A stretch of 64,000 nucleotides of DNA from a virus, in the UHGV virus genome UHGV-0129253. The stretch is one strand, 5' to 3'. Position numbers and translations under genes: made by a program. Below are positions 2,738-50,333 of the stretch, one piece after another. Every line of letters begins with the position of its first letter. Within the stretch, counting starts at the first letter, position 1. The notes beneath the pieces are model-generated. The model searched no databases, had not been told where the DNA came from, and worked only from the letters and a program-made list of their open reading frames with translations.

Positions 2738-3399
2738 TGCATAAATCAGTAGCCGGTGAGTTTCAGAAGGAAGTCGATAATACTACCGTTCTATTGGACG
2801 ATATTTTAAGCATTCTCGCGCTTCTTGAGGCTGGCGATTGGTCAGAACATTGCACTAAAACGGAGTTAGGCGGTCGGCTTGAAAGAGAGATTACACGACT
2901 TATTGGTGATGCGCAGGAAGCTACAGTCACTAGTTATGAGTTAATCGCTGAAGCCTGGCGTTTGATGGATGGACAAGATCCTAAAACTAGCGATTGGCAT
3001 AGCAAGGCTTCGAAGTATTTAAATTCCGATAGGGTAGAAAAAGTTGATGATGTGAAACCGAAGCCAGTAGACCACGGTTTCCGCGATAACTGCGAATGCT
3101 CTAGTTGCCAGACCACGGCCCGTATTTGTTCCGAATTGACAGATAAGTCCAGCCTAATCTACGAAGTTAATGTAGGCGGTAATACATGGGTCGAATGCAC
3201 AAGAGCTGCATACGTAAGAGCAAAAGACAAGGGTGAATTAACCAGAGTTGTTGCCCATCACCCAAATAATGAGCTTAAAGATCACCAGATTAGAGAACTG
3301 GTGAACGAGTTGCGGGATATTGCGGTTCAGTACCACGGAACGCAGCAATTGCGGGAGAAAATTGCCAGAGCAGTGAACAACTCAGTCCGTAAAAAATAA
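2734..3399 (+). CDS. Hypothetical protein (Cys cluster CECSSCQ)
   Basis: 221-aa ORF, ATGA overlap with upstream gene. Confidence 0.5.
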   Translation: MMHKSVAGEFQKEVDNTTVLLDDILSILALLEAGDWSEHCTKTELGGRLEREITRLIGDAQEATVTSYELIAEAWRLMDGQDPKTSDWHSKASKYLNSDRVEKVDDVKPKPVDHGFRDNCECSSCQTTARICSELTDKSSLIYEVNVGGNTWVECTRAAYVRAKDKGELTRVVAHHPNNELKDHQIRELVNELRDIAVQYHGTQQLREKIARAVNNSVRKK

Positions 3400-3786
3400 G
3401 CAATAGTACGATAAAGAGGCCCCATGCTCTTGATGGGGCCTGTAGCAACTAGCGTTATGGACGCTGGTTTACGTACTCAATGATCGCTTTGATAATCGCG
3501 AACATCGGCGGCACGATTTTGAACAGTAAGTTAACCATAACAGGCCTCACTTAGTTTTATCGCGCCTAGCTGCAAATACCTTTGGGCTTGCCTTTGCAGT
3601 TGCAATATCTGTAGTCGCCAGATACTTACGGCACGATTTCGAGTTAAGGTAAGGTTTTAGAGTCACCAAAAACCTGGACTTAAATCTTCTTTGAGAACAA
3701 CGATGTTTAGTAAATGGTCATTATTACCTGGTATGACCACTCAACGTTTCTTGATGAATCCAGTACATTCGGTTAATCTTAATTCA

Positions 3787-4200: not shown

Positions 4201-4590
4201 ATGGGCTTCCCTTCTCCTGCGGCGGATTATGCTGAGAGCCGTATTTCTCTTGATCAGCAGATAATTAGACATCCTTCAGCGACCTACTTCATGAGGGCAG
4301 CTGATAGTCATCATCGTGAGGGAATATTACAGGGTGCATTGCTGGTGGTCGATTCCTCACTTACCCCGGTTGATGGTTCTCTGCTTGTATGCGCTCTGGA
4401 TGGGGAATATCGCGTAAAAAGATACCGGAAGTACCCACGTCAGCATCTGGAGGATTTAAGAACCGGTAAGAAGGAAGCATTGCCAAAGGATGACGATGGA
4501 TGCACGGGCAGCAATGCCGTGTTTGGTGTGATCACTCACATTATCAACGACGCAAGAAGTGGCGAGTTTGATGATTGTCCTGTGATGTAG
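4201..4590 (+). CDS. UmuD'-like SOS mutagenesis protein (S24 LexA-like peptidase fold), HumD-like pre-processed form
   Basis: MGFPSPAADY...HPSATYF... begins at the UmuD Cys24-Gly25 cleavage position; LexA box upstream; no umuC partner in window. Confidence 0.75.
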   Translation: MGFPSPAADYAESRISLDQQIIRHPSATYFMRAADSHHREGILQGALLVVDSSLTPVDGSLLVCALDGEYRVKRYRKYPRQHLEDLRTGKKEALPKDDDGCTGSNAVFGVITHIINDARSGEFDDCPVM

Positions 4591-4601
4591 GAGAACTGTT
4601 T

Positions 4602-4626
4602 AGGTGGTGCAATGCACCACCTTTTT
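4602..4626 (+). terminator. Hairpin AGGTGGTGCA-A-TGCACCACCT + TTTT between convergent humD-like and mrp
   Basis: 10-bp stem plus T-run. Confidence 0.55.
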
Positions 4627-4627
4627 A

Positions 4628-5728
4628 TCACACTGCGCGGAATGCGATTTCGCCAGGTATTACTTCACCTTGCCAATACATTTGGGCAGCAACGCGATCT
4701 GCGAGGTCACGATAAATAGCCGTAAATTCACTATCTGGACGACTAATAACGGTTGGTGTTCCGTTATCCAGATCTTCACGAAGAGAGATATGAAGTGGCA
4801 TTTGGCCTAACAACTGCGTGTTGTATTTCTCGGCCAGTTTCTGTGCGCCACCGGTGCCAAAAATTGGCTCGTGATGACCGCAGTTACTGCAAATATGCAC
4901 ACTCATGTTTTCGACGATACCCAGTACCGGCACTTCGACTTTTTCGAACATCACAATGCCTTTCTTCGCATCGATCAGCGCGATGTCTTGCGGCGTAGTT
5001 ACCACAACCGCACCAGTTACAGGAATGTTCTGCGCCAGCGTCAACTGAATATCACCAGTGCCCGGCGGCATATCGAGAACGAGATAGTCCAGATCAGGCC
5101 ATATAGTTTCCTGCAACATCTGCATCAGCGCCTTGCTGGCCATCGGTCCACGCCACACCATTGCATTGTCGTCGGTGACCAGATAACCAATAGAGTTGGT
5201 TGCCAGGCCATGAGACATGATAGGTGCCATGTGAGTACCGTCAGGTGAGGTTGGACGTTGGTTTTCCGCGCCCAGCATGGTTGGAATTGATGGACCATAG
5301 ATATCGGCATCCAAAATACCAACTTTCGCACCTTCAGCAGCCAACGCCAGTGCCAGGTTTACCGCCGTGGAGGATTTACCCACGCCGCCCTTGCCTGAGC
5401 TGACGGCGATAATGTTCTTAACGCCATTAATGCCTGGTTGGTTTTTGACGCGCTTAAGCGTGGCAATGTTGTACGACAGCTTCCAGTCAATAGCCTTTGC
5501 GCCAGTGATACGGAGCAGATCACCACTACATTGCTCTTTCAGGTCTTCAAAAGGCTTATTCCACACGAAAGGCATGATTAGTTCGACATGCAGTGTGTCA
5601 TCCATCAACGCAACATGGTGTAACGCTTTAAGCGTAGTCAGGTTGTGTTTCAGGGTTGGGTGCTGAAAATTAGCCAGCGTACCGGCTACCATTGCTCTCA
5701 GGGCATCCGGCGATTTGGACTCGCTCAT
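4628..5728 (-). CDS. mrp: Iron-sulfur cluster carrier ATPase Mrp/ApbC
   Basis: 366 aa, P-loop SSGKGGVGKS, near-full-length match to enterobacterial Mrp; divergent from metG as in E. coli. Confidence 0.9.
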   Translation of the reverse strand: MSESKSPDALRAMVAGTLANFQHPTLKHNLTTLKALHHVALMDDTLHVELIMPFVWNKPFEDLKEQCSGDLLRITGAKAIDWKLSYNIATLKRVKNQPGINGVKNIIAVSSGKGGVGKSSTAVNLALALAAEGAKVGILDADIYGPSIPTMLGAENQRPTSPDGTHMAPIMSHGLATNSIGYLVTDDNAMVWRGPMASKALMQMLQETIWPDLDYLVLDMPPGTGDIQLTLAQNIPVTGAVVVTTPQDIALIDAKKGIVMFEKVEVPVLGIVENMSVHICSNCGHHEPIFGTGGAQKLAEKYNTQLLGQMPLHISLREDLDNGTPTVISRPDSEFTAIYRDLADRVAAQMYWQGEVIPGEIAFRAV

Positions 5729-5885: not shown

Positions 5886-7919
5886 ATGACCCAAGTCGCG
5901 AAGAAAATTCTGGTGACGTGCGCGCTGCCGTACGCTAACGGCTCAATCCACCTCGGCCATATGCTGGAGCACATCCAGGCTGATGTCTGGGTTCGTTACC
6001 AGCGAATGCGCGGCCACGAGGTTAATTTCATCTGTGCCGACGATGCCCACGGTACGCCGATCATGCTGAAAGCGCAGCAGCTTGGTATCACACCGGAGCA
6101 GATGATTGGCGAAATGAGTCAGGAACACCAGACTGATTTCGCAGGCTTTAACATCAGCTATGACAACTATCACTCGACGCACAGCGAAGAGAACCGCCAG
6201 CTGTCTGAGCTTATCTATACTCGCCTGAAAGAGAACGGTTTTATTAAAAACCGCACTATCTCTCAGTTGTACGATCCGGAAAAAGGCATGTTCCTGCCGG
6301 ACCGTTTTGTAAAAGGCACCTGCCCGAAATGTAAAGCGCCAGATCAATACGGCGATAACTGTGAAGTCTGCGGCGCAACATATAGCCCGACTGAATTGAT
6401 CGAGCCGAAATCGGTGGTTTCTGGCGCTACCCCGGTAATGCGTGATTCTGAACACTTCTTCTTTGATCTACCCTCTTTCAGCGAAATGTTGCAGGCATGG
6501 ACCCGCAGCGGCGCGTTGCAGGAGCAGGTGGCGAACAAAATGCAGGAATGGTTTGAATCCGGCCTGCAACAGTGGGATATCTCCCGCGATGCGCCTTACT
6601 TCGGTTTTGAAATTCCGAACGCGCCGGGCAAATATTTCTACGTCTGGCTGGACGCGCCGATTGGCTACATGGGTTCCTTCAAGAATCTGTGCGACAAGCG
6701 CGGCGATACCACCAGCTTCGATGAATACTGGAAGAAAGACTCCACCGCCGAGCTGTACCACTTCATCGGTAAAGATATTGTTTACTTCCACAGCCTGTTC
6801 TGGCCTGCCATGCTGGAAGGCAGCAACTTCCGCAAGCCGACCAACCTGTTTGTTCACGGCTATGTGACGGTGAACGGCGCGAAGATGTCCAAGTCTCGCG
6901 GCACCTTTATTAAAGCCAGCACCTGGCTGAATCATTTTGACGCTGACAGCCTGCGTTACTACTACACTGCGAAACTCTCTTCGCGCATTGATGATATCGA
7001 TCTCAACCTGGAGGATTTCGTTCAGCGCGTGAATGCCGATATCGTGAACAAAGTGGTTAACCTGGCCTCTCGTAATGCAGGCTTTATCAACAAGCGTTTT
7101 GACGGCGTGCTGGCAGGCGAACTGGCTGACCCGCAACTGTACAAAACCTTTACTGATGCCGCTGAAGTGATTGGCGAAGCATGGGAAAGCCGCGAATTTG
7201 GTAAAGCTATCCGTGAAATCATGGCACTGGCTGACCTGGCTAACCGCTATGTCGATGAACAGGCTCCGTGGGTGGTGGCGAAGCAGGAAGGTCGCGATGC
7301 CGATCTGCAGGCGATTTGCTCTATGGGCATTAACCTGTTCCGCGTGCTGATGACTTACCTGAAACCGGTACTGCCGAAACTGACTGAACGTGCAGAAGCA
7401 TTCCTGAATACAGAACTGACCTGGGATGGTATCCAGCAACCGCTGCTGGGCCATAAAGTGAATCCGTTCAAGGCACTGTATAACCGTATCGATATGAAAC
7501 AGGTGGAAGCACTGGTGGAAGCATCCAAAGAAGAAGTGAAAGCCACAGCCGCACCGGTAACTGGCCCACTGGCTGACGACCCGATTCAGGAAACCATCAC
7601 CTTTGACGACTTCGCCAAAGTTGACCTGCGTGTGGCGCTGATTGAAAACGCGGAGTTTGTTGAAGGTTCTGACAAACTGTTGCGCCTGACGCTGGATCTC
7701 GGCGGTGAAAAACGCAATGTCTTCTCAGGCATCCGTTCTGCTTATCCAGACCCACAGGCACTGATTGGTCGTCACACCATTATGGTGGCTAACCTGGCTC
7801 CGCGTAAAATGCGCTTCGGTATCTCCGAAGGCATGGTGATGGCTGCTGGCCCCGGCGGGAAAGATATCTTCCTGTTAAGCCCGGATGTCGGTGCTAAACC
7901 TGGCCACCAGGTTAAGTAA
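5886..7919 (+). CDS. metG: Methionine--tRNA ligase
   Basis: 677 aa from ATG 5886 ([25 protein letters not shown]...); HIGH-type and KMSKS motifs; the ORF track's 5757 start is an upstream artefact. Confidence 0.95.
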
Positions 7920-8080: not shown

Positions 8081-8380
8081 ATGTTGAACATTACCCAAGC
8101 CTACCAGGTGGCATTGATCAGTTCATCTCATACATCAGAGGAAGATGCTCGCCGATTCATGATCGCAAGCAATGAGCTGGATTGGGTTTCACAAATTGAC
8201 GGCGGTTGTATTGTCCACGCTGGGTTACAGGATGATGTCTGGAAAGAGGACTTGCGTCGATATGGTATATCCGAAGGCGCGATTGCTAACATTCAGAAAG
8301 TACTTGATGTAGGCTTTGACTCTGTACATTTTGATTGTGGTGCGCCGGTCGTTGAAGGGCTTGAGTGCTGGAACTGGTAA
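8081..8380 (+). CDS. Hypothetical protein
   Basis: ATG 8081 with GGAG upstream. Confidence 0.5.
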   Translation: MLNITQAYQVALISSSHTSEEDARRFMIASNELDWVSQIDGGCIVHAGLQDDVWKEDLRRYGISEGAIANIQKVLDVGFDSVHFDCGAPVVEGLECWNW

Positions 8381-8425: not shown

Positions 8426-9160
8426 ATGAAAAAGTTGAAAAGTTTAGAAATCCCTGGGACTGGTTATAAATTCTTTATGGACAACGCGGAGTGTGCACCT
8501 AACGCGTTGGAAAAAATACAAAGTCTTATCAACAGCCTTACTGAAGAAGCGAAAGAACTGAATAGCGAGGCGACAAAGGACAATACAGCTAAAATCCAAT
8601 GCTTAAATCTCGTTTCTTATTGTTTATATCAAGTGTCCAAGACACTGATTAAAGGCAATATCTATTACGACGATGAAGACACCTCGACACCTGAAGAAAA
8701 AGATAGCGATGAAGAACTCTATGAAGATATCTCTACTAGTGCGGGTCACGCTGCCTTCGATGCTATGGGTAAATCGTCAGGCATCAGATCGTTTGTTGAA
8801 CAGAACAATTCGACAATAATGATTGAGTACTGTGAACAAACAAGCTCCAAGGCCATACATGTTCTTCACGATGTTGCTGCAGGGGTTCGCTGTGAGGCTG
8901 AAGCGGTCAGAAAAGATGTATTTGGTGCAGACAGTAATACCGTGAAAGCGTTCATCAACAGTGCTCTGCTAAATTCTTACTCAAACCTTATCGTCAATGC
9001 GGCACTATGCGCAAATTCTGGTGAAGAACACATTGTCATAACCGAAACCAAATATGAGCATCAACAGTCACCAACCATAGAAGAGGTAACTGCATTGGCT
9101 ATCAAACAGGCGAGTGAAATTAGTGATGAAATTCTCTCTCTGCTAAACAAAACTAAGTAA
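8426..9160 (+). CDS. Hypothetical acidic protein
   Basis: 244-aa ORF with acidic stretches (DDEDTSTPEEKDSDEELYED). Confidence 0.5.
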   Translation: MKKLKSLEIPGTGYKFFMDNAECAPNALEKIQSLINSLTEEAKELNSEATKDNTAKIQCLNLVSYCLYQVSKTLIKGNIYYDDEDTSTPEEKDSDEELYEDISTSAGHAAFDAMGKSSGIRSFVEQNNSTIMIEYCEQTSSKAIHVLHDVAAGVRCEAEAVRKDVFGADSNTVKAFINSALLNSYSNLIVNAALCANSGEEHIVITETKYEHQQSPTIEEVTALAIKQASEISDEILSLLNKTK

Positions 9161-9229
9161 AACATTGATAATGGCGGTCACAATTTGATTCTTTTCTATA
9201 AGAATCCGTTGATCGCCACTACTCCCCTT

Positions 9230-10020
9230 CCATGCCTGGAATCACATCCTTAAATATCAATAGGTTACAGTTGTTTATACCAATAAGAAAACAACTGAAT
9301 AACAGATCAACGAAACATCAACGCTTTCACCCGATTTGGTCTAAAAAATTGACGTTTTCACACATCACTGCTTATACCCGTAATTCTACGCAGCAGACAG
9401 CGCCACAGCGTCCAATTTTCACCACAGACGACCCAACACACTACCAACAAAAACACACGCTCAAAATCGCTCCCGTTGCGTTACACAACCATATAAACAA
9501 CTTATTTTCAGGTATAACGAAACAACTAAATAACACATATGCCATTTCCAAAAACAACCAACCTCTTTATGGCAGGCTACCGAAAAGACCCACCTCTTCT
9601 CCCCAGGCTACCGGACAACCAACCTAACTTTCACAGGCAATCCGAAAACATTCATACGCGCGATACCCACGACACGCCATTACCCAAACAGCGAAGAAAC
9701 ACCAGAATCACTGAACCCCCAACGAAGCCTGTAACCGCAAGGCTTCTCTCAATCCCAAAAGACACGAAACAGAACAATCACGGGAAACGCCATTACCCAA
9801 CACACGAATAACTACAAAAGCCTTTCACACACTCCAGACAAACAACTCAAACACAATAACGAAAGGAATCGCCCACCTGCCATTACTCCATACACGGAGA
9901 AGAACAATCACCAAAACGACGAGAACACCCCATAGAAGAACCACCGCAAAACGAACGAAACCACATACACCGACAGAGAAAACAACACACCCAATTCACC
10001 AACAGAAATAGTCGCCGTAT
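9230..10020. other. G-depleted A+C-rich noncoding tract (~0.8 kb)
   Basis: Plus strand ~12-15% G by hand count on three 60-nt lines; ORFs in it translate to low-complexity sequence. Confidence 0.5.
9551..9653 (+). repeat. Direct repeats of CAGGCTACCG(A/G)A(A/C)AA..CC(A/C)ACCT (3-4 copies)
   Basis: Same family recurs at 13565-13648. Confidence 0.4.
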
Positions 10021-10219
10021 AGAACGTTCTGGAAGGAGTGAGCATTAACGCCTATAGAGAGGTTGAAACAGATAAAACACGAAGAAAACACAACATGTAT
10101 AGCGAACAAGACAGGTATGTATAAGTGGGGAGGGAAGGAGGGGTGTTGCCTCCTTTTTCGTATTTATTCAACTCCTGATTTTATCCCCCGTAACACCCCT
10201 ACGGTCAGCCTTCGGTCCA

Positions 10220-10360
10220 TACAGGGAAAAGGCTGCATCCTGCTACAGAAACGGCTGGGTTGCCTTCGGGGAACGGCTGGGGATTTTCAGGGAAACGGTC
10301 GAGTTGCCTGTGTGGATTTCGGGAAAAGGCTCGATGCCGGTTCAGGAACGGTGGCGTACC
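10220..10360 (+). repeat. Iteron array: six copies of (C)(A/G)GGAAA(A/C)GGCTG at ~21-24 bp spacing, with a DnaA-box-like TGTGGATTT
   Basis: Copies at 10222, 10246, 10268, 10288, 10320, 10343. Confidence 0.5.
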
Positions 10361-10690
10361 GGTATAGCGTGAGGGAGAGTTGCGGCTACCCACCTGTAAT
10401 GTGCGGGAAGAAGAGAGGCGCTCACGTGCAGGCGAACTTACTTACCGCAGGATTCCCTCTGAATGCCCAACTACAGCGTAATTGTGCCAGACAGCCAACG
10501 GGTCACAATCGATTTCAGTAGGTTTTCGGGGAGATGATTATTCTGCCCACCAGCCACCTTCGGCCACTAAATCAGAATAATGTAAAAAGTGTACTCGGTA
10601 CTGAACCTGAAAACTCACTGCCAAAACCACATTCACCGGAATAAAATCCTTTTCCGCCTTTGTCTTATTGCGATAATAACACCAACAAGT

Positions 10691-10704
10691 AAACAACATG
10701 TTTA
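10691..10704. promoter_or_regulatory. Early-type palindrome AAACAACATGTTTA after a GATAAT box
   Basis: Module CGATAAT(A/T)ACACCAACAAG-AAACAA..TGTTT shared with 13180 and 13670. Confidence 0.35.
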
Positions 10705-10735
10705 GACGTTATATAAACGAAGTGAGGATGAAGAG

Positions 10736-10954
10736 ATGATTAAGATGCCTGTGACGGTTGAGGTGTGGGGCGTGGATTCCCTGGCTGAGTGTCTGGATGC
10801 AGTGGGGCCGGAGTTGTACCGCAAGTTGTGGTCGTTCGTCCCGGCAGAAGGGGAATCGCCCAAAGGGAAGGATATCTGGCACCTGCTGAGTGAAGATGAA
10901 AAGCGAGAGCTGGTGGACGCGGTACACAGCGAGTTCCCGGGCGACGAAGATTAA
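10736..10954 (+). CDS. Small acidic hypothetical protein
   Basis: 72 aa; GTGAGGATG upstream; terminator downstream. Confidence 0.5.
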   Translation: MIKMPVTVEVWGVDSLAECLDAVGPELYRKLWSFVPAEGESPKGKDIWHLLSEDEKRELVDAVHSEFPGDED

Positions 10955-45296: not shown

Positions 45297-48200
45297 ATGT
45301 GGTACAGGGAAGGTACTATCACATTTACACAGGGTAGCAATACTCTGGTTGGGGCAGGGACAGCCTGGAACGTAACAGCTAATGGTGTGTTGCCGGGGAT
45401 GATCGTCATTGGCCCCGACAATAAGCTGTATGAGATCAAGCGCGTAATAAGCGATACGAATATTGTTCTCTCAGAACCTTATACCGGCGAAACTCAGTCT
45501 GAAGTTCCGTGCCGAATCATTACGACCTATGAAGGCGACTTAACACAGTTTAGCGCGCGCTTTACTGCGCTAATGTCGCGTATGTCGGCTGATTCCAAGT
45601 CTATGCGCAGTTGGTTGACTGCGCTGGATGAGGTGACAATCGAGCGTGAAGACGGTACAGAAGTGGCCGTTAAGCCGCTGATGCAGATCGTCAACGAGCA
45701 CAACGAAAACGTTGAGTGGTATAAAAATAACACTGACGCGATTGATGCCGCTGGCGACAAAGCTCGTGAGGCGGCGGCCAGTGCTGCCGCAGCGGCAGAA
45801 AGCGCCAATACCGCTGGAGAAAAAGCCTCTCAAGCGTCTCAAAGTGCATCCGCTGCGGCATCCTCACAAAGTGCCGCAAGTGCGAGTGCAACTGCTGCGA
45901 AAAAATCTGAAACGAATGCTGCAGCGTCACAAAAATCTGCAGCCACTTCTGCATCCACCGCGACCACGAAAGCGTCAGAAGCTGCCACCTCAGCCAGAGA
46001 TGCGTCGGCTTCAAAAGAGGCGGCAAAATCATCAGAAACGAGCGCAGCCTCGAGCGCCAGTAGTGCAGCCTCCTCGGCAACAGCGGCAGGCAATTCCGCG
46101 AAGGCGGCAAAAACGTCCGAGACGAACGCCAGGTCTTCTGAAACGGCAGCGGGACAGAGTGCCTCGGCTGCGGCAGGCTCAAAAACAGCGGCTGCGTCGT
46201 CTGCCAGTGCCGCGTCAACAAGTGCCGGGCAGGCCTCAGCCAGTGCCACCGCCGCCGGAAAATCGGCAGAAAGTGCCGCATCGTCTGCTTCAACAGCCAC
46301 AACGAAGGCTGGCGAAGCCACTGAACAGGCCAGCGCAGCAGCGAGGTCTGCTTCCGCAGCGAAGACATCCGAAACGAACGCGAAAGCGTCGGAAACCAGC
46401 GCAGAATCCTCAAAAACGGCTGCCGCATCGTCCGCCAGTTCGGCGGCGTCATCGGCATCATCGGCGTCTGCTTCAAAAGATGAGGCGACCAGACAAGCGT
46501 CCGCAGCGAAGGGCAGCGCCACGACAGCATCCACGAAGGCGACAGAGGCAGCTGGCAGTGCGACGGCGGCAGCACAGAGCAAAAGTACGGCGGAATCCGC
46601 GGCAACGCGCGCCGAGACAGCGGCAAAACGGGCAGAGGATATTGCATCCGCCGTGGCGCTTGAGGATGCAAGTACGACGAAAAAGGGGATAGTACAGCTC
46701 AGCAGTGCGACCAACAGTACGTCTGAAACGCTGGCCGCAACGCCAAAAGCAGTTAAAGCAGCCAATGACAATGCGAATAGCAGGGTGCCATCTAACCGAA
46801 AAGTTAACGGAAAAGCACTGACTGCGGATATAACATTAACGCCGAAAGATATTGGTACTTTAAATTCAGTAACGATGTCTTTCTCTGGCGGGGCTGGGTG
46901 GTTCAAACTGGCTACGGTTACCATGCCACAAGCGAGTTCCATCGTTTACATCGCATTGATTGGTGGCGCTGGTTACAACGTCGGTTCCCCACATCAGGCA
47001 GGCATTTCAGAACTGGTTCTACGAGCAGGCAATGGAAACCCCAAAGGAATTACCGGGGCTTTGTGGAAGCGTACAGCCGTCGGATTAACGAATTTCGCCT
47101 GGATCAACACATCCGGCGATACATATGATATTTACGTTGAGATTGGCAATTATGCGACGAGTGTAAATATCCATTGGGATTGTACTGCAAATGCGTCAGT
47201 TTCTGTTTATACCTCGCCAACATATTCAGCGAGTAAGCCTTCCAGCGTTACCGATGGTGTTGTTTATACGATGTATAGCACACATCAGAAACCGACGCCG
47301 TTAGATATTGGAGCACTGCCAACAACCGGAGGAACAGTTTCAGGTCCGTTGTCTGTTACAGGTGGATTAACTGGTTCATTGAATGGTAATGCAAGTACAG
47401 CCACGAAATTGCAGACGGCAAGATCTATCGGTGGAGTTGTTTTCGACGGTTCTGCAAATATTAATTTGCCAGGTGTTAATACGACTGGTAATCAGAATAC
47501 AACGGGCAACGCTGCAACCGCTACAAAACTACAGACAGCGCGTACAATCAACGGTGTTAAGTTTGATGGTTCTGCGGACATAACGCTGACTCCTGCGAAC
47601 CTTGACGTATACAGCAAAAGCGAAATAGACAATAAAAAAGGGATGAGAAAATACACTTTTTCAGCGCCTGCAAATGCAGTAAGCGGTAAGTGGTATCCTA
47701 TAGTCTTTCGCCGATCTGGAGGCAGTACCGATGAATTAGCCTCACGAGTTGTGATAACTACTTATTCCTCAGCTGGCGGATACGCCATGAATAATTGTGA
47801 ATTTAATGGGTTTGTTATGCCTGGCGGTTGGTCTGATCGCGGTTCATATGCGGCTGGTTTTTTCTCAATATATTCTACTGCTGAGCGAGCTATACACTCG
47901 ATTATTTCAAGTGTGAAAGATGACGATTTGTGTAGTGTATTTTACGTTGAAGCCAGAGCATTCCCTATCAAGATATTTGCTGAGGAGGGCTTGAACGTAA
48001 TTGTTCCAACGGCTGATTATGCAGTTGGTCAAACCACTTATAAGTGGGGGGCAACTGATCCTTTATCAGAAAGTACGAATGCACAGATAATTTTGGACTT
48101 TAAAAATGGACGAGGTTATTACTGTTCACATCCATTTATTTCAAGTCTTTCAGGAAATGCTGCTACAGCAACGAAATTGCAGACTGCAAGAACTATCGGC

Positions 48201-50333
48201 GGCGTGGCCTTCGATGGATCTGCGAACATAAATTTGCCTGGTGTAAACACGGCAGGTAATCAGAATACAACGGGCAACGCGGCTACTGCTACGAAGTTGC
48301 AAACAGCGAGAAACATCAATGGTGTTAAGTTTGATGGCTCAGGCGATATCAACATTAATACACTGGTATCTCGTGGCCGAGTTACGGCGTTAAGCGGCTC
48401 TACTCAAGGCACTGCTGGCATTCAAATGTATGAGGCGTACAACAATAGCTACCCGACCATGTATGGCAACGTATTGCACATGAAAGGTGCGAGTGCTTCT
48501 GGTGAGGGCGAGATGCTTGTTGGCTGGAGCGGAACGGATGGTGCTCATGCACCGGTTTATGTTCGTTCACGCCGTGATACTTCGACAGCGAATTGGTCTG
48601 GTTGGGCGCAGGTCTATACCACTGCTCATAAACCCACAGCGAAAGATGTTGGGGCTGCACAGACGTTTAGCGCGTCATACAGTACTGGGGCTGGCAACTG
48701 GACTACCGCTGAATTTATCGCATGGCTGAAGGAGCGTGGTGCTTTCGCCGTACCGTATTGGATGATGAAAGGCTCTTGGTCATATGCCGACAATAAAATT
48801 ATCACTGATACAGGTGTCGGCAATATTTGTCTTGCTGGTGCGGTTATCGAGGTTTTAGGTCACGAAGGCGCAATGACCATCCGAGTTACTACGCCTACAA
48901 CGACAACCGGAGGTGGTATTGCCAGTGCTCAGTTCACCTATATTAATCACGGTAGCGCGTATGCCCCTGCCTGGCGCAGAGATTACAACACGACTCTCAA
49001 ACCCACTGCGGCTGATGTCGGTGCGTTGCCGAGCGGTGGCGGCACACTTTCCGGCGCACTCACATTATCTATGGCTGCGCCAAGTGTCCAGTTACGAGGG
49101 CAAGGTACGGACACCAGACAGTACATCATGGCTTACAGAACCGATGGCGCTACATCATGGTATGTGGGCAAGGCTAACAACGGCTCCGATAATGCGATGT
49201 TCTGGAACTATACCGGCTCCAACGGAATTGAATTGGCTGCCGATGGCAATGTGCGTATTAATGCGAAGGGTAAACAGTTTACGTTCGCAAACAATGGGAA
49301 CTTAGGTCTTGTTGCTTCGTTAGATCAGAGTTCAGTTCCACAGGGTACTTACCATCAAGTAGCTCTTAACACTGGCACTGTTGGTGGTAAATCGTACCTT
49401 CGAAAATTCCGCGGCGGCAACACAGACACCATTTGGCATGAGACGGTTCAGGGCGGCTTCCTTCGTTGGGCAACCGGCAATGCTGATGAGCAAGAAGAAC
49501 TGTCTATCAGTACTGGCTATGGTGTTCGAGCAAGAGGTGAAATCACTTCCCTTAGCGCCAATGGTCTAAGAGTGGCTTACGGGAATTACGGCTTCTTTAT
49601 TCGCAATGATGGCGGAACAACTTACTTCTTGCTGACTGCTTCTGGCGACAAGTTCGGAAGCTGGAATGCTTTGCGTCCAATGTACATTAACAACGCTTCA
49701 GGCGCGGTTACGATGGGGAACGGGTTGTCGCTTGCCGGTGGCTTAAATGTCACGAGCGGAAATATCCGAATCCCGACGTCGAGTACATCTTGGATCGACA
49801 TGAGAAACAATGCCGCTCTGTCTAACAGTTCTGCGGTTGCCACTTCCTCTGCATCGGCCATTATTCGTCAGGAGCACGCCGATCGTCATTATTTTGTTGG
49901 TGGTTTAGGCAACTCTCAGTTCGGGTTCTACATGATTAACAAGTCACGAACCGCGAACGGCACGGATGCGAACGCATACCTCCAGAATGACGGTACTTGG
50001 GTTTGCGGCGGTAATGGCAGCTTTAATGACGTTTATATCCGTTCTGACCGCCGTAGTAAGCGCAATATTCGCAAGATTGACCGGGCGCTCGACAAGCTGG
50101 AGCAGATCGAAGGTGTTCTCTACGAGATTCAGGTCTGTGGCCGTTATGAGCAGTCTGGTGGCCTCATCGCTCAGGATGTCCAGAATGTTCAACCTGAACT
50201 GGTAACGGTCGACCATAACGATCAGTCAGGAGAGCCTCGTCTGCGTCTTAACTACAACGGCGTTATCGGCATGTTGGTTGAGGCTGTCAAAGAGTTGCGC
50301 GAGGAAGTGCGCGAACTGAAGGCAAAAATGTAA
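45297..50333 (+). CDS. Side tail fibre with Ala/Ser-rich region, tail-fibre repeats and C-terminal S74 intramolecular chaperone domain
   Basis: Repeats GNAATATKLQTAR.I.GV.FDGS; C-terminal SDRRSKRNI...LREEVRELKAKM typical of endosialidase-type chaperone. Confidence 0.8.
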   Translation: MWYREGTITFTQGSNTLVGAGTAWNVTANGVLPGMIVIGPDNKLYEIKRVISDTNIVLSEPYTGETQSEVPCRIITTYEGDLTQFSARFTALMSRMSADSKSMRSWLTALDEVTIEREDGTEVAVKPLMQIVNEHNENVEWYKNNTDAIDAAGDKAREAAASAAAAAESANTAGEKASQASQSASAAASSQSAASASATAAKKSETNAAASQKSAATSASTATTKASEAATSARDASASKEAAKSSETSAASSASSAASSATAAGNSAKAAKTSETNARSSETAAGQSASAAAGSKTAAASSASAASTSAGQASASATAAGKSAESAASSASTATTKAGEATEQASAAARSASAAKTSETNAKASETSAESSKTAAASSASSAASSASSASASKDEATRQASAAKGSATTASTKATEAAGSATAAAQSKSTAESAATRAETAAKRAEDIASAVALEDASTTKKGIVQLSSATNSTSETLAATPKAVKAANDNANSRVPSNRKVNGKALTADITLTPKDIGTLNSVTMSFSGGAGWFKLATVTMPQASSIVYIALIGGAGYNVGSPHQAGISELVLRAGNGNPKGITGALWKRTAVGLTNFAWINTSGDTYDIYVEIGNYATSVNIHWDCTANASVSVYTSPTYSASKPSSVTDGVVYTMYSTHQKPTPLDIGALPTTGGTVSGPLSVTGGLTGSLNGNASTATKLQTARSIGGVVFDGSANINLPGVNTTGNQNTTGNAATATKLQTARTINGVKFDGSADITLTPANLDVYSKSEIDNKKGMRKYTFSAPANAVSGKWYPIVFRRSGGSTDELASRVVITTYSSAGGYAMNNCEFNGFVMPGGWSDRGSYAAGFFSIYSTAERAIHSIISSVKDDDLCSVFYVEARAFPIKIFAEEGLNVIVPTADYAVGQTTYKWGATDPLSESTNAQIILDFKNGRGYYCSHPFISSLSGNAATATKLQTARTIGGVAFDGSANINLPGVNTAGNQNTTGNAATATKLQTARNINGVKFDGSGDININTLVSRGRVTALSGSTQGTAGIQMYEAYNNSYPTMYGNVLHMKGASASGEGEMLVGWSGTDGAHAPVYVRSRRDTSTANWSGWAQVYTTAHKPTAKDVGAAQTFSASYSTGAGNWTTAEFIAWLKERGAFAVPYWMMKGSWSYADNKIITDTGVGNICLAGAVIEVLGHEGAMTIRVTTPTTTTGGGIASAQFTYINHGSAYAPAWRRDYNTTLKPTAADVGALPSGGGTLSGALTLSMAAPSVQLRGQGTDTRQYIMAYRTDGATSWYVGKANNGSDNAMFWNYTGSNGIELAADGNVRINAKGKQFTFANNGNLGLVASLDQSSVPQGTYHQVALNTGTVGGKSYLRKFRGGNTDTIWHETVQGGFLRWATGNADEQEELSISTGYGVRARGEITSLSANGLRVAYGNYGFFIRNDGGTTYFLLTASGDKFGSWNALRPMYINNASGAVTMGNGLSLAGGLNVTSGNIRIPTSSTSWIDMRNNAALSNSSAVATSSASAIIRQEHADRHYFVGGLGNSQFGFYMINKSRTANGTDANAYLQNDGTWVCGGNGSFNDVYIRSDRRSKRNIRKIDRALDKLEQIEGVLYEIQVCGRYEQSGGLIAQDVQNVQPELVTVDHNDQSGEPRLRLNYNGVIGMLVEAVKELREEVRELKAKM
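45760..46650 (+). repeat. Low-complexity Ala/Ser/Thr-rich coding repeat (GC-rich) inside the tail fibre gene
   Basis: Generates long spurious ORFs in other frames and on the minus strand. Confidence 0.6.

Follow-up and report, generated by a model that had tools for sequence, protein, structure and literature searches.

Rho binds C-rich, G-poor, unstructured and ribosome-free RNA of ~80 nt, and in E. coli it acts to silence foreign DNA and prophages. Rho-dependent terminators and attenuators (lambda tR1, the tna and rho leaders, prophage silencing) are among the closest described systems to the locus analyzed here, and other kinds of element also invite comparison. These include long non-coding RNAs with several copies of a short motif in an A-rich context, such as CrcZ/CrcY (Hfq) and CsrB/RsmZ (CsrA). 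The TMV omega leader and the CA-repeat translational enhancers of E. coli are 30-70 nt long and lie directly upstream of a translated ORF. Transcription-primed or transcription-activated origins are represented by ColE1 RNA II, T4 oriF/ori(34) and lambda ori.

The locus is an A/C-rich tract at positions 9230-10020 (+ strand) of the window, by which we mean the whole 64,000-nt stretch that was analyzed. Like Rho-dependent terminators, the tract is C-rich, G-poor, unstructured and untranslated, is followed by a G-rich, pause-dense region, and lies in mobile DNA after an expressed gene with no convincing intrinsic terminator. Unlike a rut site, it is about 10 times longer, selected at the level of sequence, poor in U as well as in G and not enriched in YC, and it includes 4-6 copies of an 11-12-nt motif together with a repressor operator. 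The tract shares with CrcZ/CrcY and CsrB/RsmZ the long non-coding form, the motif copies and the A-rich context, but its AAnAAnAA/ARN or hairpin-loop GGA elements occur at chance, it has no Rfam match and it is silent in lysogens. It is nearly G-free, A/C-rich and fold-preventing like the omega and CA-repeat leaders, but is ~800 nt long and is not followed by a conserved ORF, the next gene being served by a promoter of its own. As in transcription-activated origins, a promoter-like element precedes a purine/G-rich stretch, an A/T block and direct repeats by several hundred nt; however, the tract transcript would be C-rich and unstructured, whereas RNA II function is fold-dependent, and the repeats are not RepA iterons. 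Finally, one operator is scattered before many early genes as are the C1 operators of phage P1 (NC_005856), AAACAAnTTGTTT being present 14 times with one copy in the tract, but C1 operators are asymmetric 17-mers and the first 50 kb of P1 hold no comparable A/C tract. No description of the tract region was found in the searchable literature. Of the readings considered, we tentatively favor that of a possible untranslated and unstructured Rho-loading barrier or attenuator.

Base composition of the tract

The host element of the window is an SSU5-like phage-plasmid with 97.7% identity to Escherichia phage Cyrano. On the + strand the tract has A 0.393, C 0.314, G 0.126 and T 0.167 (71% A+C), against A 0.279, C 0.221, G 0.251 and T 0.249 for the whole window. 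The computed 12.6% G agrees with the 12-15% that a preliminary description of this DNA had counted by hand. Among all 790-nt windows, G has a mean of 0.250 (sd 0.030) and a minimum of 0.123, while A+C has a mean of 0.501 (sd 0.031) and a maximum of 0.710; both extremes start at 9221. The tract is the lowest in G and highest in A+C within the 64-kb window, ~7 SD off the mean, and positions 9201-10000 show its strongest skews (GC skew -0.437, AT skew +0.389), so the strand asymmetry that had been called atypical indeed lies far beyond the range found elsewhere in the element. In 600-nt windows the tract peaks at A+C 0.74, the next non-overlapping window reaches 0.595, and the maximum in the first 50 kb of phage P1 is 0.585.

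With the core defined by C/G of at least 1.5 in every 78-nt window, it spans 9264-10040 (777 nt), and the runner-up stretch in the window measures 221 nt. Together with the composition scans, this core shows the coordinates of 9230-10020 given previously to be correct to ~30 nt. The reported richness in CA/ACA/AAC units holds as an effect of composition but not beyond it, as judged against dinucleotide-preserving shuffles (ACA z 0.45, AAC 1.1, CAA -0.7). A MazF-type ACA enrichment was likewise rejected, ACA being at chance frequency given the composition. The tract has 0 Chi sites and 1 GATC (Dam) site, with no clustering of either.

Coding potential and conservation

The tract is non-coding. 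Two + strand ORFs overlap it, 9232-9627 (131 aa) and 9539-9811 (90 aa), one of which is annotated in Cyrano as CYRAN_103 (window 9271-9627); PGAP left the entire 1.58 kb unannotated in the closest plasmid. Stop-to-stop maps of eight orthologues gave no common reading frame across the tract. Orthologues are separated by 1-, 2-, 8-, 10- and 11-nt indels, those between close relatives being frame-breaking, and autocorrelation of the tract mismatches found no 3-nt periodicity. A coding gene or pseudogene is ruled out by the lack of a shared frame, the frame-breaking indels, the aperiodic mismatches and the absence of coding-frame homology. The earlier statement that the tract lacks credible ORFs is thus right in substance, although two + strand ORFs do exist. 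Of the two outcomes that the preliminary description had named as speaking against it, neither was found: the composition is not within the normal range, and there is no homology to a frameshift-disrupted gene.

Comparison with related phages, which had been suggested as a check, revealed that the tract is conserved and that its composition is kept even in distant families. Tract identity to SSU5 is 0.68, compared with 0.65 for the surrounding coding DNA, and 4-fold degenerate sites of neighboring genes are saturated at an identity of 0.34 (n = 116). Against composition-matched shuffles the alignment z of the tract is 22-28 (28 within the SSU5 group). In an alignment of 38 sequences, 210 of 616 columns (34%) are invariant, and 836 plasmid records match the tract. 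For the distant phage-plasmid families L082 and L083 core similarity is marginal (alignment z 3.6 and 2.4), and the equivalent syntenic place has A ~0.40, C ~0.30, G 0.13-0.18 and T 0.10-0.14; most sequence similarity is gone there, while composition, motifs and position are retained. Biallelic columns in the tract hold 60 A<->C swaps against 4 G<->T swaps, where composition alone predicts a ratio of 2.3, and the adjacent G-rich region has the opposite bias (15 A<->C against 33 G<->T). These alignments show that the tract is under strong purifying selection and that composition itself is a conserved property. Since it is conserved at least as well as the neighboring genes and its composition outlasts its sequence, the tract is clearly functional.

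A functionless origin, either a decayed gene or a neutral spacer skewed by strand-biased mutation such as deamination, is largely refuted by these conservation data and is the sort of explanation we consider extremely improbable. In the E. coli lineage, + strand G losses do outnumber gains (39 versus 22) with G>A the commonest change, as deamination of C on the opposite strand would produce, but the other two lineages show no such mutational asymmetry. The identity of 0.68 against 0.34 at saturated synonymous sites, the alignment z of 22-28, the 34% invariant columns among 38 sequences and the lack of coding-frame homology all speak against it.

One relative has dispensed with the region. In Y. 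pestis pMT1 the module around the tract was lost via an IS1541-associated rearrangement; to our knowledge pMT1 is kept as a plasmid, and we know of no phage production from it. As pMT1 persists as a plasmid without the module, the module is dispensable for plasmid maintenance.

Architecture of the module

The tract forms the core of a larger conserved unit, a gene-less module of ~1.5 kb situated at the junction of the variable cargo region with a conserved block of small repressor-controlled genes. From left to right, the module consists of a boundary motif, a promoter-like element, the A/C tract itself, which holds a repressor operator and the repeated (C)TGCCATTACCC motifs, a purine-rich stretch, a hairpin and a 22-bp-spaced repeat array. 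Its features, other than the repeats of the tract and array, are:

9161-9222, + strand: left boundary block, starting 1 nt past the stop codon of the last cargo gene (8426-9160)
9173-9181, 9195-9203 and 9208-9217, + strand: boundary-block motifs GGCGGTCAC, TCTATAAGA and GTTGATCGCC, respectively
9187-9206: 7-bp hairpin GATTCTT/AAGAATC in the boundary block, only in this lineage
9285-9303, + strand: degenerate early promoter/operator unit, AAGAAAACAACTGAATAAC, from alignment and comparison with the element's standard units
9307-9312 and 9318-9323, + strand: two direct TCAACG repeats, 11 bp apart, from direct reading
9343-9378, + strand: promoter-like element with A-tract (9343-9348), TTGACG (9349-9354), 17-nt spacer and TTATAC/TATACC (9372-9378)
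9495-9507: operator-like 13-bp palindrome AAACAAnTTGTTT inside the tract, reading AAACAACTTATTT
10013-10145, + strand: purine-rich segment (A+G 0.68), opening with conserved CGCCGTATAGA (10013-10023) and closing in GGGGAGGGAAGGAGGGG
10132-10168, + strand: terminator-like hairpin AAGGAGG..CCTCCTT followed by a T-run, from a consensus scan (-24.8 kcal/mol, z = -2.7)
10669-10677, + strand: extended -10 promoter TGcGATAAT at the right end of the module
10691-10703, + strand: operator palindrome of the first small early gene (10736-10954)

In every orthologue the variable cargo stops and conserved sequence begins at the boundary block, which has a mean conservation of 0.90-0.94 and whose TCTATAAG..GTTGATC is also found in L082 and L083. 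A sigma-54 promoter and an RfaH ops element were rejected for this block, as by-eye comparison with either consensus fails at invariant positions. The L082 equivalent of the degenerate unit at 9285-9303 (position 3752) is a perfect AAACAACTTGTTT palindrome. The TCAACG repeats are conserved in all SSU5-group lineages and appear as GTCAA..GTCAA in L082 and L083, and an inverted copy forms the downstream -35-like hexamer. In all clades both hexamers of the promoter-like element are invariant, with a spacer variable in sequence but fixed in length, and L082 and L083 carry a matching TTGAC(A/T)-17-CTTA(T/C)ACC. The -10 of this element does not end in the consensus T, which is why the consensus scan missed it; were the element to act as a promoter, transcription would start near 9386.

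The palindrome at 9495 is conserved in every lineage and perfect in the Salmonella and Klebsiella lineages. The 14 copies of AAACAAnTTGTTT compare with 0.38 expected in the window, and at early genes the other copies are placed between the extended -10 promoter and the ribosome-binding site. To the right of the tract, the L083 counterpart of the purine-rich segment is ~200 nt long with ~80% A+G. The hairpin at 10132-10168 is kept in the Klebsiella lineage; the Salmonella group and distant families lack the U-run or do not clearly conserve the hairpin. An A/T-rich block at 10155-10190 is conserved. PHROG assignment places all neighboring proteins, including the product of the first small early gene, in families of unknown function; they therefore offer no functional hint and no initiator candidate.

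Repeated motifs and possible roles at the DNA level

Repeats occur both within the tract and in the G-rich region beyond it:

9541-9551, + strand: copy 1 of the GCCATTACCC motif, degenerate (TGCCATTTCCA)
9552-9643, + strand: three tandem 30-31-nt repeats, (A/C)CCACCTCTT..CAGGCTACCG, with the first two copies 0.94 conserved
9676-9686, + strand: copy 2, GCCATTACCCA motif
9789-9799, + strand: copy 3, GCCATTACCCA motif
9879-9889, + strand: copy 4, GCCATTACTCC motif with flank CATACACGGAGAAGAAC, the best-conserved copy
10224-10366, + strand: six iteron-like direct repeats (C)AGGRAAMGG(C/T) in the G-rich region, with spacings of 24, 22, 22, 31 and 22 bp

The tract motif, of 11-12 nt, is present in all families in 4-6 co-oriented copies per lineage, and GCCATT is the sole word over-represented in all five lineages and families. 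The tandem repeats have an L083 analogue, ACACCACCCAA..CAAGGC. Tract repeats are only degenerate (65-85% identity) and Tandem Repeats Finder returned nothing, which excluded tandem-repeat RNA loci such as a type III antitoxin locus or a CRISPR array. Inverted repeats I2-I4, which might have paired the tract with the G-rich region over a long range, were also dismissed, as their arms are not nested and not conserved in relatives.

The six-repeat array lies outside the tract proper and is conserved in all families, with RAAACGG repeats at the equivalent place in L082 and L083. A RepA iteron or incA-like locus was discarded: true iterons score 20-25 bits on the PWM, whereas the module reaches at most 8.9 bits, and the repeats at 10224-10366 differ from the plasmid's own RepA iterons, which have the form ATCCACTATAGAGAG. 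The earlier suggestion of an origin-associated region is supported insofar as the tract adjoins an origin-like array.

One alternative to the Rho reading is a DNA-level cis element, either a lytic replication origin or another nucleoprotein complex, which we regard as rather unlikely. A phage protein would bind the GCCATTACCC-type sites and the related (C)AGGRAAACGG repeats at 10224-10366, and the tract and its transcript would aid activation or priming beside the purine-rich stretch and the A/T-rich block at 10155-10190. The ~22-bp spacing of the array corresponds to two helical turns and all families keep it. The 5' flank of the tract motif (CAGGGAACGCC in SSU5-group lineages, CGGGAAACGCC in the window) resembles the array repeat (CAGGGAAACGG), and the purine-rich stretch, which would form a stable RNA:DNA hybrid if transcribed, precedes the conserved A/T-rich block. 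Additionally, the element encodes a helicase, a primase, DnaE and a ligase but has no annotated lytic origin, and pMT1, for which we know of no phage formation, is without the module. However, proteins that bind double-stranded DNA need no 800-bp strand-asymmetric composition, and the excess of A<->C over G<->T swaps indicates a constraint on a single strand. The motif spacings in the tract (142, 135 and 93 bp) vary between families and are out of helical phase, the array repeats are not RepA iterons (8.9 versus 20-25 bits), no initiator candidate is found among the neighboring proteins of unknown function, and a C-rich rightward RNA disfavors R-loops over the tract. An R-loop-prone region, as had been proposed, would fit only leftward transcription yielding G-rich RNA, for which there is no evidence; rightward RNA would be C-rich.

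A recognition region for DNA packaging (pac or cos) had also been suggested, and we judge it extremely unlikely. Short motifs distributed over several hundred bp do resemble some binding regions of terminase small subunits. Nothing ties the motifs to terminase, however, and the terminase/structural module starts ~13 kb downstream of the tract, where the SSU5 and Cyrano records were opened.

Predicted properties of a rightward transcript

The + strand is nearly free of G and poor in T, so that rightward RNA would be unfoldable, ribosome-free and C-rich. Indeed, predicted folding of the + strand tract RNA (785 nt) gives -123.5 kcal/mol, or -0.16 per nt, with a z of -0.6 relative to shuffles. This bears out the lack of structure proposed earlier: a + strand transcript would be essentially structure-free. 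The - strand fold has z = +1.8 and the G-rich region at 10118-10420 has z = 0.05. Selected RNA structure was rejected, the shuffle z-scores being unremarkable and a small hairpin at ~9465-9482 having no covariation support in the alignment.

An Hfq-binding leader or sponge of (ARN)n character, comparable to CrcZ or the rpoS leader, was the leading idea of the preliminary description. The RNA would be A-rich (39%) and unstructured, and ARN triplets could come from the purine-rich segment (10013-10145) and, in L083, from its 200-nt A/G stretch. Runs in the tract itself are at chance, with 5 ARNx3 against 4.8 expected, 1 ARNx4 against 0.9 and 3 AANx3 against 2.1. Given also the silence of the tract in lysogens and the lack of an Rfam match (Rfam 15 search of 9161-10736, no match at E <= 1), we consider Hfq binding very improbable. 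Sponges for other regulators were rejected on similar grounds. For CsrA (CsrB/RsmZ type), GGA occurs 4 times in the tract against 5.1 expected, again with no Rfam match, and the GGA within the repeated motif is missing from several copies and lineages. For GcvB, duplexes of the tract with R1 average -19.3 kcal/mol against a window-wide -16.5 +/- 4.4 kcal/mol, with the top sites elsewhere. No sequence complementary to the GCCATTACCC motif was found elsewhere in the window beyond chance.

YC dinucleotides number 89 in the tract compared with 101 +/- 6 in mononucleotide shuffles (z = -2), a density of ~14 per 100 nt that is ample in absolute terms. The pause-core motif (G-10..Y-1 G+1) occurs 1.39 times per 100 nt in the tract, in the bottom 2% of windows, and 5.98 times per 100 nt in 10200-10450.

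Expression in the lysogen and a possible Rho-loading barrier

In lysogens, two expressed genes flank the tract, which itself is silent. Published RNA-seq of a Cyrano lysogen gives up to ~590 FPKM for CYRAN_102, upstream and in the same orientation, and up to ~200 FPKM for CYRAN_105 downstream, while CYRAN_103 has 0-14 FPKM, with zero reads in LB and a signal that may mix strands (PMC9928086, S1 Table). In macrophage samples CYRAN_105 rises to ~200 FPKM but the tract stays at 5-7 FPKM (PMC9928086, S1 Table); the early gene and the tract are therefore not co-expressed. The RNA-seq check proposed in the preliminary description has a counterpart in these lysogen data, where the tract yields 0-14 FPKM. 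The signal falls ~250-fold within 111 nt of the CYRAN_102 stop codon, and sequence reading and a consensus scan of 9160-9271 gave no convincing intrinsic terminator.

We infer + strand transcription into the tract, Rho loading and termination as follows. RNA polymerase would enter from expressed cargo genes or from the module's own promoter-like elements. Rho would load on the naked, C-rich RNA and travel along a stretch with few pause sites, and polymerase would be released in the G-rich, pause-rich zone at ~10020-10450, ahead of the repeat array and early genes. The hairpin-less RNA would then be trimmed by 3' exonucleases, and in lysogens a repressor at the tract operator (9495) may add a roadblock.

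The Rho reading is consistent with a rut-like composition at a scale unique in the window (C/G of at least 1.5 over 777 nt versus 221 nt), with RNA that is untranslated and predicted to be unstructured with no selected fold, and with a composition kept across families through A<->C rather than G<->T swaps. A pause-poor tract followed by a pause-dense zone is the usual layout of a rut site and release zone. The expressed upstream gene, the loss of signal at the tract with no convincing intrinsic terminator in between, and the persistence of pMT1 without the module also fit. On the other hand, ~80 nt suffices for a rut site whereas the tract has ~800, and conservation of sequence and the co-oriented (C)TGCCATTACCC motifs would be superfluous for one. 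YC, the unit of the Rho primary site, is not enriched beyond composition, and a ~250-fold drop is too fast for Rho alone, requiring the added assumption of exonucleolytic trimming. In Klebsiella lineages the adjacent cargo genes are oriented away from the tract, which is still conserved, so insulation from upstream cargo is not the whole story.

A possible transcript made after induction

A different explanation, which we hold to be somewhat improbable, is an induction-specific long non-coding RNA that acts in trans by titrating a protein of the host or the phage that binds single-stranded RNA, such as Rho. Such an RNA would be 600-850 nt long, structure-free and U-poor, would start at promoter-like elements at ~9285, 9349-9378 and 9480 and end at the 10132-10168 hairpin, and after repressor loss would bind through its C-rich body and the repeated UGCCAUUACCCA motifs. 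The module contains gene-less rightward promoter/operator units homologous to those of early genes, and in this lineage a hairpin and T-run are suitably placed. Sequence conservation and 4-6 co-oriented motif copies fit repeated binding sites, silence in lysogens fits repressor control, and an RNA so low in U would be cleaved poorly by RNase E. Against this, the tract is not co-expressed with the early gene CYRAN_105 in macrophages, the -10 elements of the internal units have decayed in this lineage (TACACA), and the intrinsic terminator is not conserved in the Salmonella group or distant families. Rho itself should terminate untranslated C-rich RNA. No partner was found: Hfq and CsrA motif counts are at expectation, GcvB duplex energies are unexceptional and the window has no complementary sequence elsewhere, and we know of no binder of the repeated motif UGCCAUUACCCA.

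The trans and origin readings can be stated jointly as a structure-free platform, held free of G and T by selection and made as RNA only after induction, serving either as a trans decoy that captures Rho or another single-strand RNA binder or as the activating or priming transcript of a lytic origin that the neighboring purine tract and 22-bp repeats would form; we think it unlikely. In its decoy variant, capture via the C-rich body and UGCCAUUACCCA repeats would globally loosen host termination and RNA control in lytic growth.

Implications

The tract adds a functional, unannotated 0.8 kb, conserved at least as well as neighboring genes, to SSU5-like phage-plasmids, which occur commonly among clinical isolates of E. 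coli, Klebsiella, Salmonella and Enterobacter and whose resistance and virulence cargo sits exactly at the junction where the module begins. If the tract is a Rho barrier, it would explain how expressed cargo can lie directly upstream of an early control region without triggering it, and would provide an unusually clean natural case of selection for unfoldable RNA. If a decoy RNA or origin transcript is made instead, it would be a new control point of the plasmid-to-phage switch, and therefore of cargo spread, and a new class of phage-plasmid cis or trans RNA element on more than 800 clinical Enterobacteriaceae plasmids.

The preliminary description had not foreseen that the tract is under strong purifying selection, that its composition is conserved across families, or that an operator and repeated motifs are embedded in it.

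Composition and coding status of the tract

On the + strand, the tract at 9230-10020 consists of 39.3% A, 31.4% C, 12.6% G and 16.7% T. Among all 790-nt windows of the 64 kb it has the lowest G (~4 SD from the mean) and the highest A+C (~7 SD), and the strongest skews of the window (GC -0.44, AT +0.39) are found here. The C/G ratio is at least 1.5 in each 78-nt window across 777 nt (9264-10040), other such stretches being at most 221 nt long; in 600-nt windows, A+C climbs to 0.74 in the tract, compared with a next-highest value of 0.595 and a maximum of 0.585 for the first half of phage P1. Computed composition and skew thus bear out the hand count and limits of the G-poor tract in the preliminary description. 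A second compositional outlier at 45600-46800 (GC 0.60, AT skew +0.41) is the Ala/Ser/Thr-rich low-complexity part of a 1678-aa tail-fibre-like ORF (45297-50333); it is coding and has no relation to the tract.

Two + strand ORFs of 131 aa and 90 aa lie inside the tract, one of them annotated in Escherichia phage Cyrano. Long ORFs are expected here, since stop codons need T and G, both of which are scarce. Stop-to-stop maps of eight orthologues have no common reading frame, relatives of 96% identity are four 1-nt indels apart in the tract, more distant relatives carry indels of 2, 8, 10 and 11 nt, and mismatches between relatives lack lag-3 periodicity. The tract is therefore noncoding, in keeping with the earlier remark that it holds no credible ORFs, and the NCBI pipeline leaves it unannotated in most plasmids.

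Layout of the module

Over 9100-10200, Cyrano (pLF82 of E. coli LF82) shares 97.7% identity with the window, and further SSU5-like phage-plasmids share 94-97%. The annotation of the closest plasmid, pEC7518-111k, includes a RepFIB-type repA, terminase, tail genes and toxin-antitoxin pairs, together with a replisome of its own (DnaE, DnaB-like helicase, primase, ligase).

Table. Features of the module and its surroundings (window coordinates; strand given for genes)
5886-7919, + strand, methionyl-tRNA synthetase gene, complete, upstream cargo
8081-8380, + strand, hypothetical gene
8426-9160, + strand, hypothetical gene, CYRAN_102 of Cyrano
From the 8426-9160 gene to 10736, annotation-free gap of ~1.58 kb
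9161-9222, boundary block with TCTATAAGA and GTTGATCGCC, both kept even in distant families
9285-9303, early promoter/operator unit, degenerate
9307-9323, TCAACG twice, 11 bp apart
9343-9378, promoter-like element: A-tract (9343-9348), TTGACG (9349-9354), 17-nt spacer, TTATAC/TATACC (9372-9378)
9495-9507, palindrome AAACAAnTTGTTT, one copy inside the tract
9541 (degenerate), 9676, 9789, 9879, (C)TGCCATTACCC, four copies inside the tract
9552-9643, three 31-nt repeats inside the tract
10013-10145, purine-rich segment right of the A/C tract
10132-10168, hairpin and T-run
10155-10190, A/T-rich block, conserved
10224-10366, six repeats, (C)AGGRAAMGG(C/T), ~22-bp spacing, in a G-rich region
10669-10703, promoter and operator of the first early gene
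10736 onward, + strand, series of small genes of unknown function

The promoter-like element is found in all families, its spacer variable in sequence and constant in length; its -10 (9372-9378) is non-consensus. Only the word GCCATT is in excess in each of the five lineages and families tested (2-5 copies versus 0.1-0.2 expected). The module region has no match in Rfam, and our literature search found no description of it. In the cargo just upstream, an ApbC/Mrp (MinD-like) ATPase gene (~4628-5728, - strand) is expressed during lysogeny in LF82; as auxiliary genes, it and the methionyl-tRNA synthetase gene are unusual in a temperate phage.

The window has 14 copies of the 13-bp palindrome AAACAAnTTGTTT versus 0.38 expected (1082, 8004, 8055, 9495, 10691, 11069, 11553, 12456, 13206, 13691, 22849, 22874, 53778 and 56708). 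As a rule a copy is placed after an extended -10 promoter (TGnGATAAT) and before a small gene's ribosome-binding site, with copies in some cases upstream of the promoter as well. The palindrome looks like a putative dispersed operator of the element's main repressor, much as P1 has C1 operators, and the copy in the tract would tie the module to the repressor-controlled (early) regulon. The E. coli Chi octamer GCTGGTGG is present in 21 copies in 64 kb (14 +, 7 -; + strand positions include 4341, 10909, 13537, 14368, 22623 and 25490) versus ~2 expected for a random octamer, which suggests selection for protection against RecBCD; none of the 21 lies in the tract.

Conservation of sequence and composition

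With blastn, the tract was matched in 836 plasmids, whose hosts are Klebsiella, Escherichia, Enterobacter, Salmonella, Citrobacter and Cronobacter, among others. Variable cargo, which includes Ivy, GIY-YIG nuclease and restriction-modification genes and IS elements, stops at a sharp junction at ~9161-9165 in each lineage that was compared, and an unannotated conserved gap of 1.4-1.9 kb follows. Against SSU5, the namesake of the group, identity is 0.68 in the tract and 0.65 in the flanking coding DNA of three genes, whose 4-fold degenerate sites are saturated (0.34, n = 116); against Klebsiella the values are 0.61 for the tract, 0.55 for flanking coding DNA and 0.40 for 4-fold sites. Because low-complexity composition inflates identity, alignment scores were compared with composition-matched shuffles, giving z = 28 (SSU5) and z = 22 (Klebsiella); the comparison of relatives proposed in the preliminary description thus finds the tract kept. 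An alignment of 38 non-redundant sequences shows no variation in 210 of the 616 columns of the tract, versus 69 of 538 at 10110-10750 of the same gap. By these alignments, the tract appears better conserved than the neighbouring genes.

Composition is retained as well: tract G is 0.12-0.18 and A+C 0.62-0.70 in 40 of 40 representatives. The two distant phage-plasmid families, OW968253.1 and CP056499.1, belong to different replicon clusters, with a marker protein only 31-33% identical, and have an unannotated gap of matching layout at the corresponding syntenic place. Their A/C-rich tracts (~650-850 nt, G 0.12-0.18, T 0.06-0.14) have marginal core similarity to the window (z 3.6 and 2.4). Biallelic tract columns show 60 A<->C versus 4 G<->T exchanges, where composition predicts a ratio of 2.3, and the ratio is reversed in the G-rich region to the right (15 versus 33). 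Composition itself is a conserved property of the tract. The finding is genuine: a statistical extreme that is kept by selection and spread widely among plasmids of clinical relevance.

The tract has lost further G in the E. coli lineage (39 losses, 22 gains), which makes it more extreme in the window (12.6% G) than in SSU5 (~17%). Changes on the + strand in this lineage favor G>A (23) and T>C (14) over C>T (13) and A>G (10) despite far fewer G and T sites, a signature that would be expected of opposite-strand deamination; the excess was not found in the Salmonella or Klebsiella lineages.

Expression and possible functions

In LF82 lysogens (log2(FPKM+5), S1 Table of PMC9928086), CYRAN_102 reaches 5.6-9.2, CYRAN_103 (9271-9627) 2.32 in LB (zero reads) and at most 4.3 elsewhere, CYRAN_104 (10117-10521) 2.6-4.7, and CYRAN_105, the first early gene, a maximum of 7.8 in macrophages. 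The tract is thus silent in lysogens and flanked by two units that can be active. Neither reading of the sequence nor a consensus scan found a convincing intrinsic terminator after the CYRAN_102 stop codon. The + strand RNA of 9386-10170 has a fold energy of only -123 kcal/mol (-0.16 per nt; z = -0.6), giving no sign of a selected fold; it is unstructured because of its composition.

A does not pair with C, and G and U are promiscuous partners, so a strand selected to be A/C-only is selected against folding. This points to a constraint on the single-stranded form, most simply the rightward transcript. Rho is established as the enterobacterial factor that seeks out long, C-rich, G-poor, ribosome-free, unstructured RNA, descriptors that are also given in published work. 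The order of parts agrees with a rut region that has a release zone behind it, since pause-core motifs are sparse in the tract (1.39 per 100 nt, bottom 2% of windows) and dense at 10200-10450 (5.98). Rightward transcription would be ended by Rho here and the hairpin-less RNA tail then trimmed by a 3' exonuclease, which would explain the silence downstream of the expressed CYRAN_102; the barrier would shield the 22-bp repeat array and early genes. We tentatively infer a Rho-dependent barrier or attenuator, the reading that we favor and consider possible but short of probable. It does not account for a tract as long as 800 nt, for conservation at the level of sequence, for UGCCAUUACCCA motifs that share one orientation, for YC dinucleotides that are not enriched, or for the retention of the tract in Klebsiella lineages whose adjoining cargo genes face away. 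For these reasons two serious rivals are kept.

The first, a trans-acting decoy RNA made specifically upon induction, would give the conserved motifs a role, and we think it rather unlikely. No partner complementary to the repeated motif occurs elsewhere in the window, and the tract does not stand out in its complementarity to the G/U-rich R1 region of GcvB. The Hfq-binding (ARN)n character once proposed gains no support, as ARN and AAN run counts in the tract do not exceed shuffles; nor do those of ACA and GGA.

The second, also improbable in our estimate, is a DNA or transcript element of a lytic origin to which the purine tract and the 22-bp repeats would also belong. The repeats (10224-10366) keep their position and type in all families examined; although iteron-like, they differ from the plasmid's own RepA iterons and are not RepA sites, and they may serve as a regulatory array or as a second (lytic) origin. 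After its A/C tract, CP056499.1 has a ~200-nt purine tract (2860-3070, ~80% A+G) with three CCGTATAGA-like motifs, and OW968253.1 has five TTTGGGAAG repeats (4500-4640); the segment at 10013-10145 is the short counterpart of these longer purine and G-rich repeat tracts. If the Rho reading is right, the tract is a new, extreme variant of Rho-dependent terminator or insulator; under either rival it would be more novel still.

Losses and remnants

In 42 of the 47 IMG/VR loci with sufficient upstream sequence, the tract precedes the marker gene by 3.3-4.8 kb. For four of the five tract-less loci, much or all of the sequence closely matches the Yersinia pestis pMT1 locus; the remaining one matches it only weakly. 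In pMT1 (NC_004838.1, 5856-6800) the site is taken up by an IS1541 copy and unrelated genes; the marker gene and regulators downstream are retained, and the whole noncoding module and several small early genes are missing. Since pMT1 persists as a plasmid and is not known to yield phage, the loss fits a function on the phage rather than the plasmid side, compatible with a Rho barrier, a decoy RNA and a lytic origin alike. The left third of the module alone (window ~9279-9613) is present in K. pneumoniae pKP106-1, a large non-phage-plasmid (186 kb, IncFIB/IncHI1B), where it adjoins a type I restriction-modification locus and is probably a recombination remnant.
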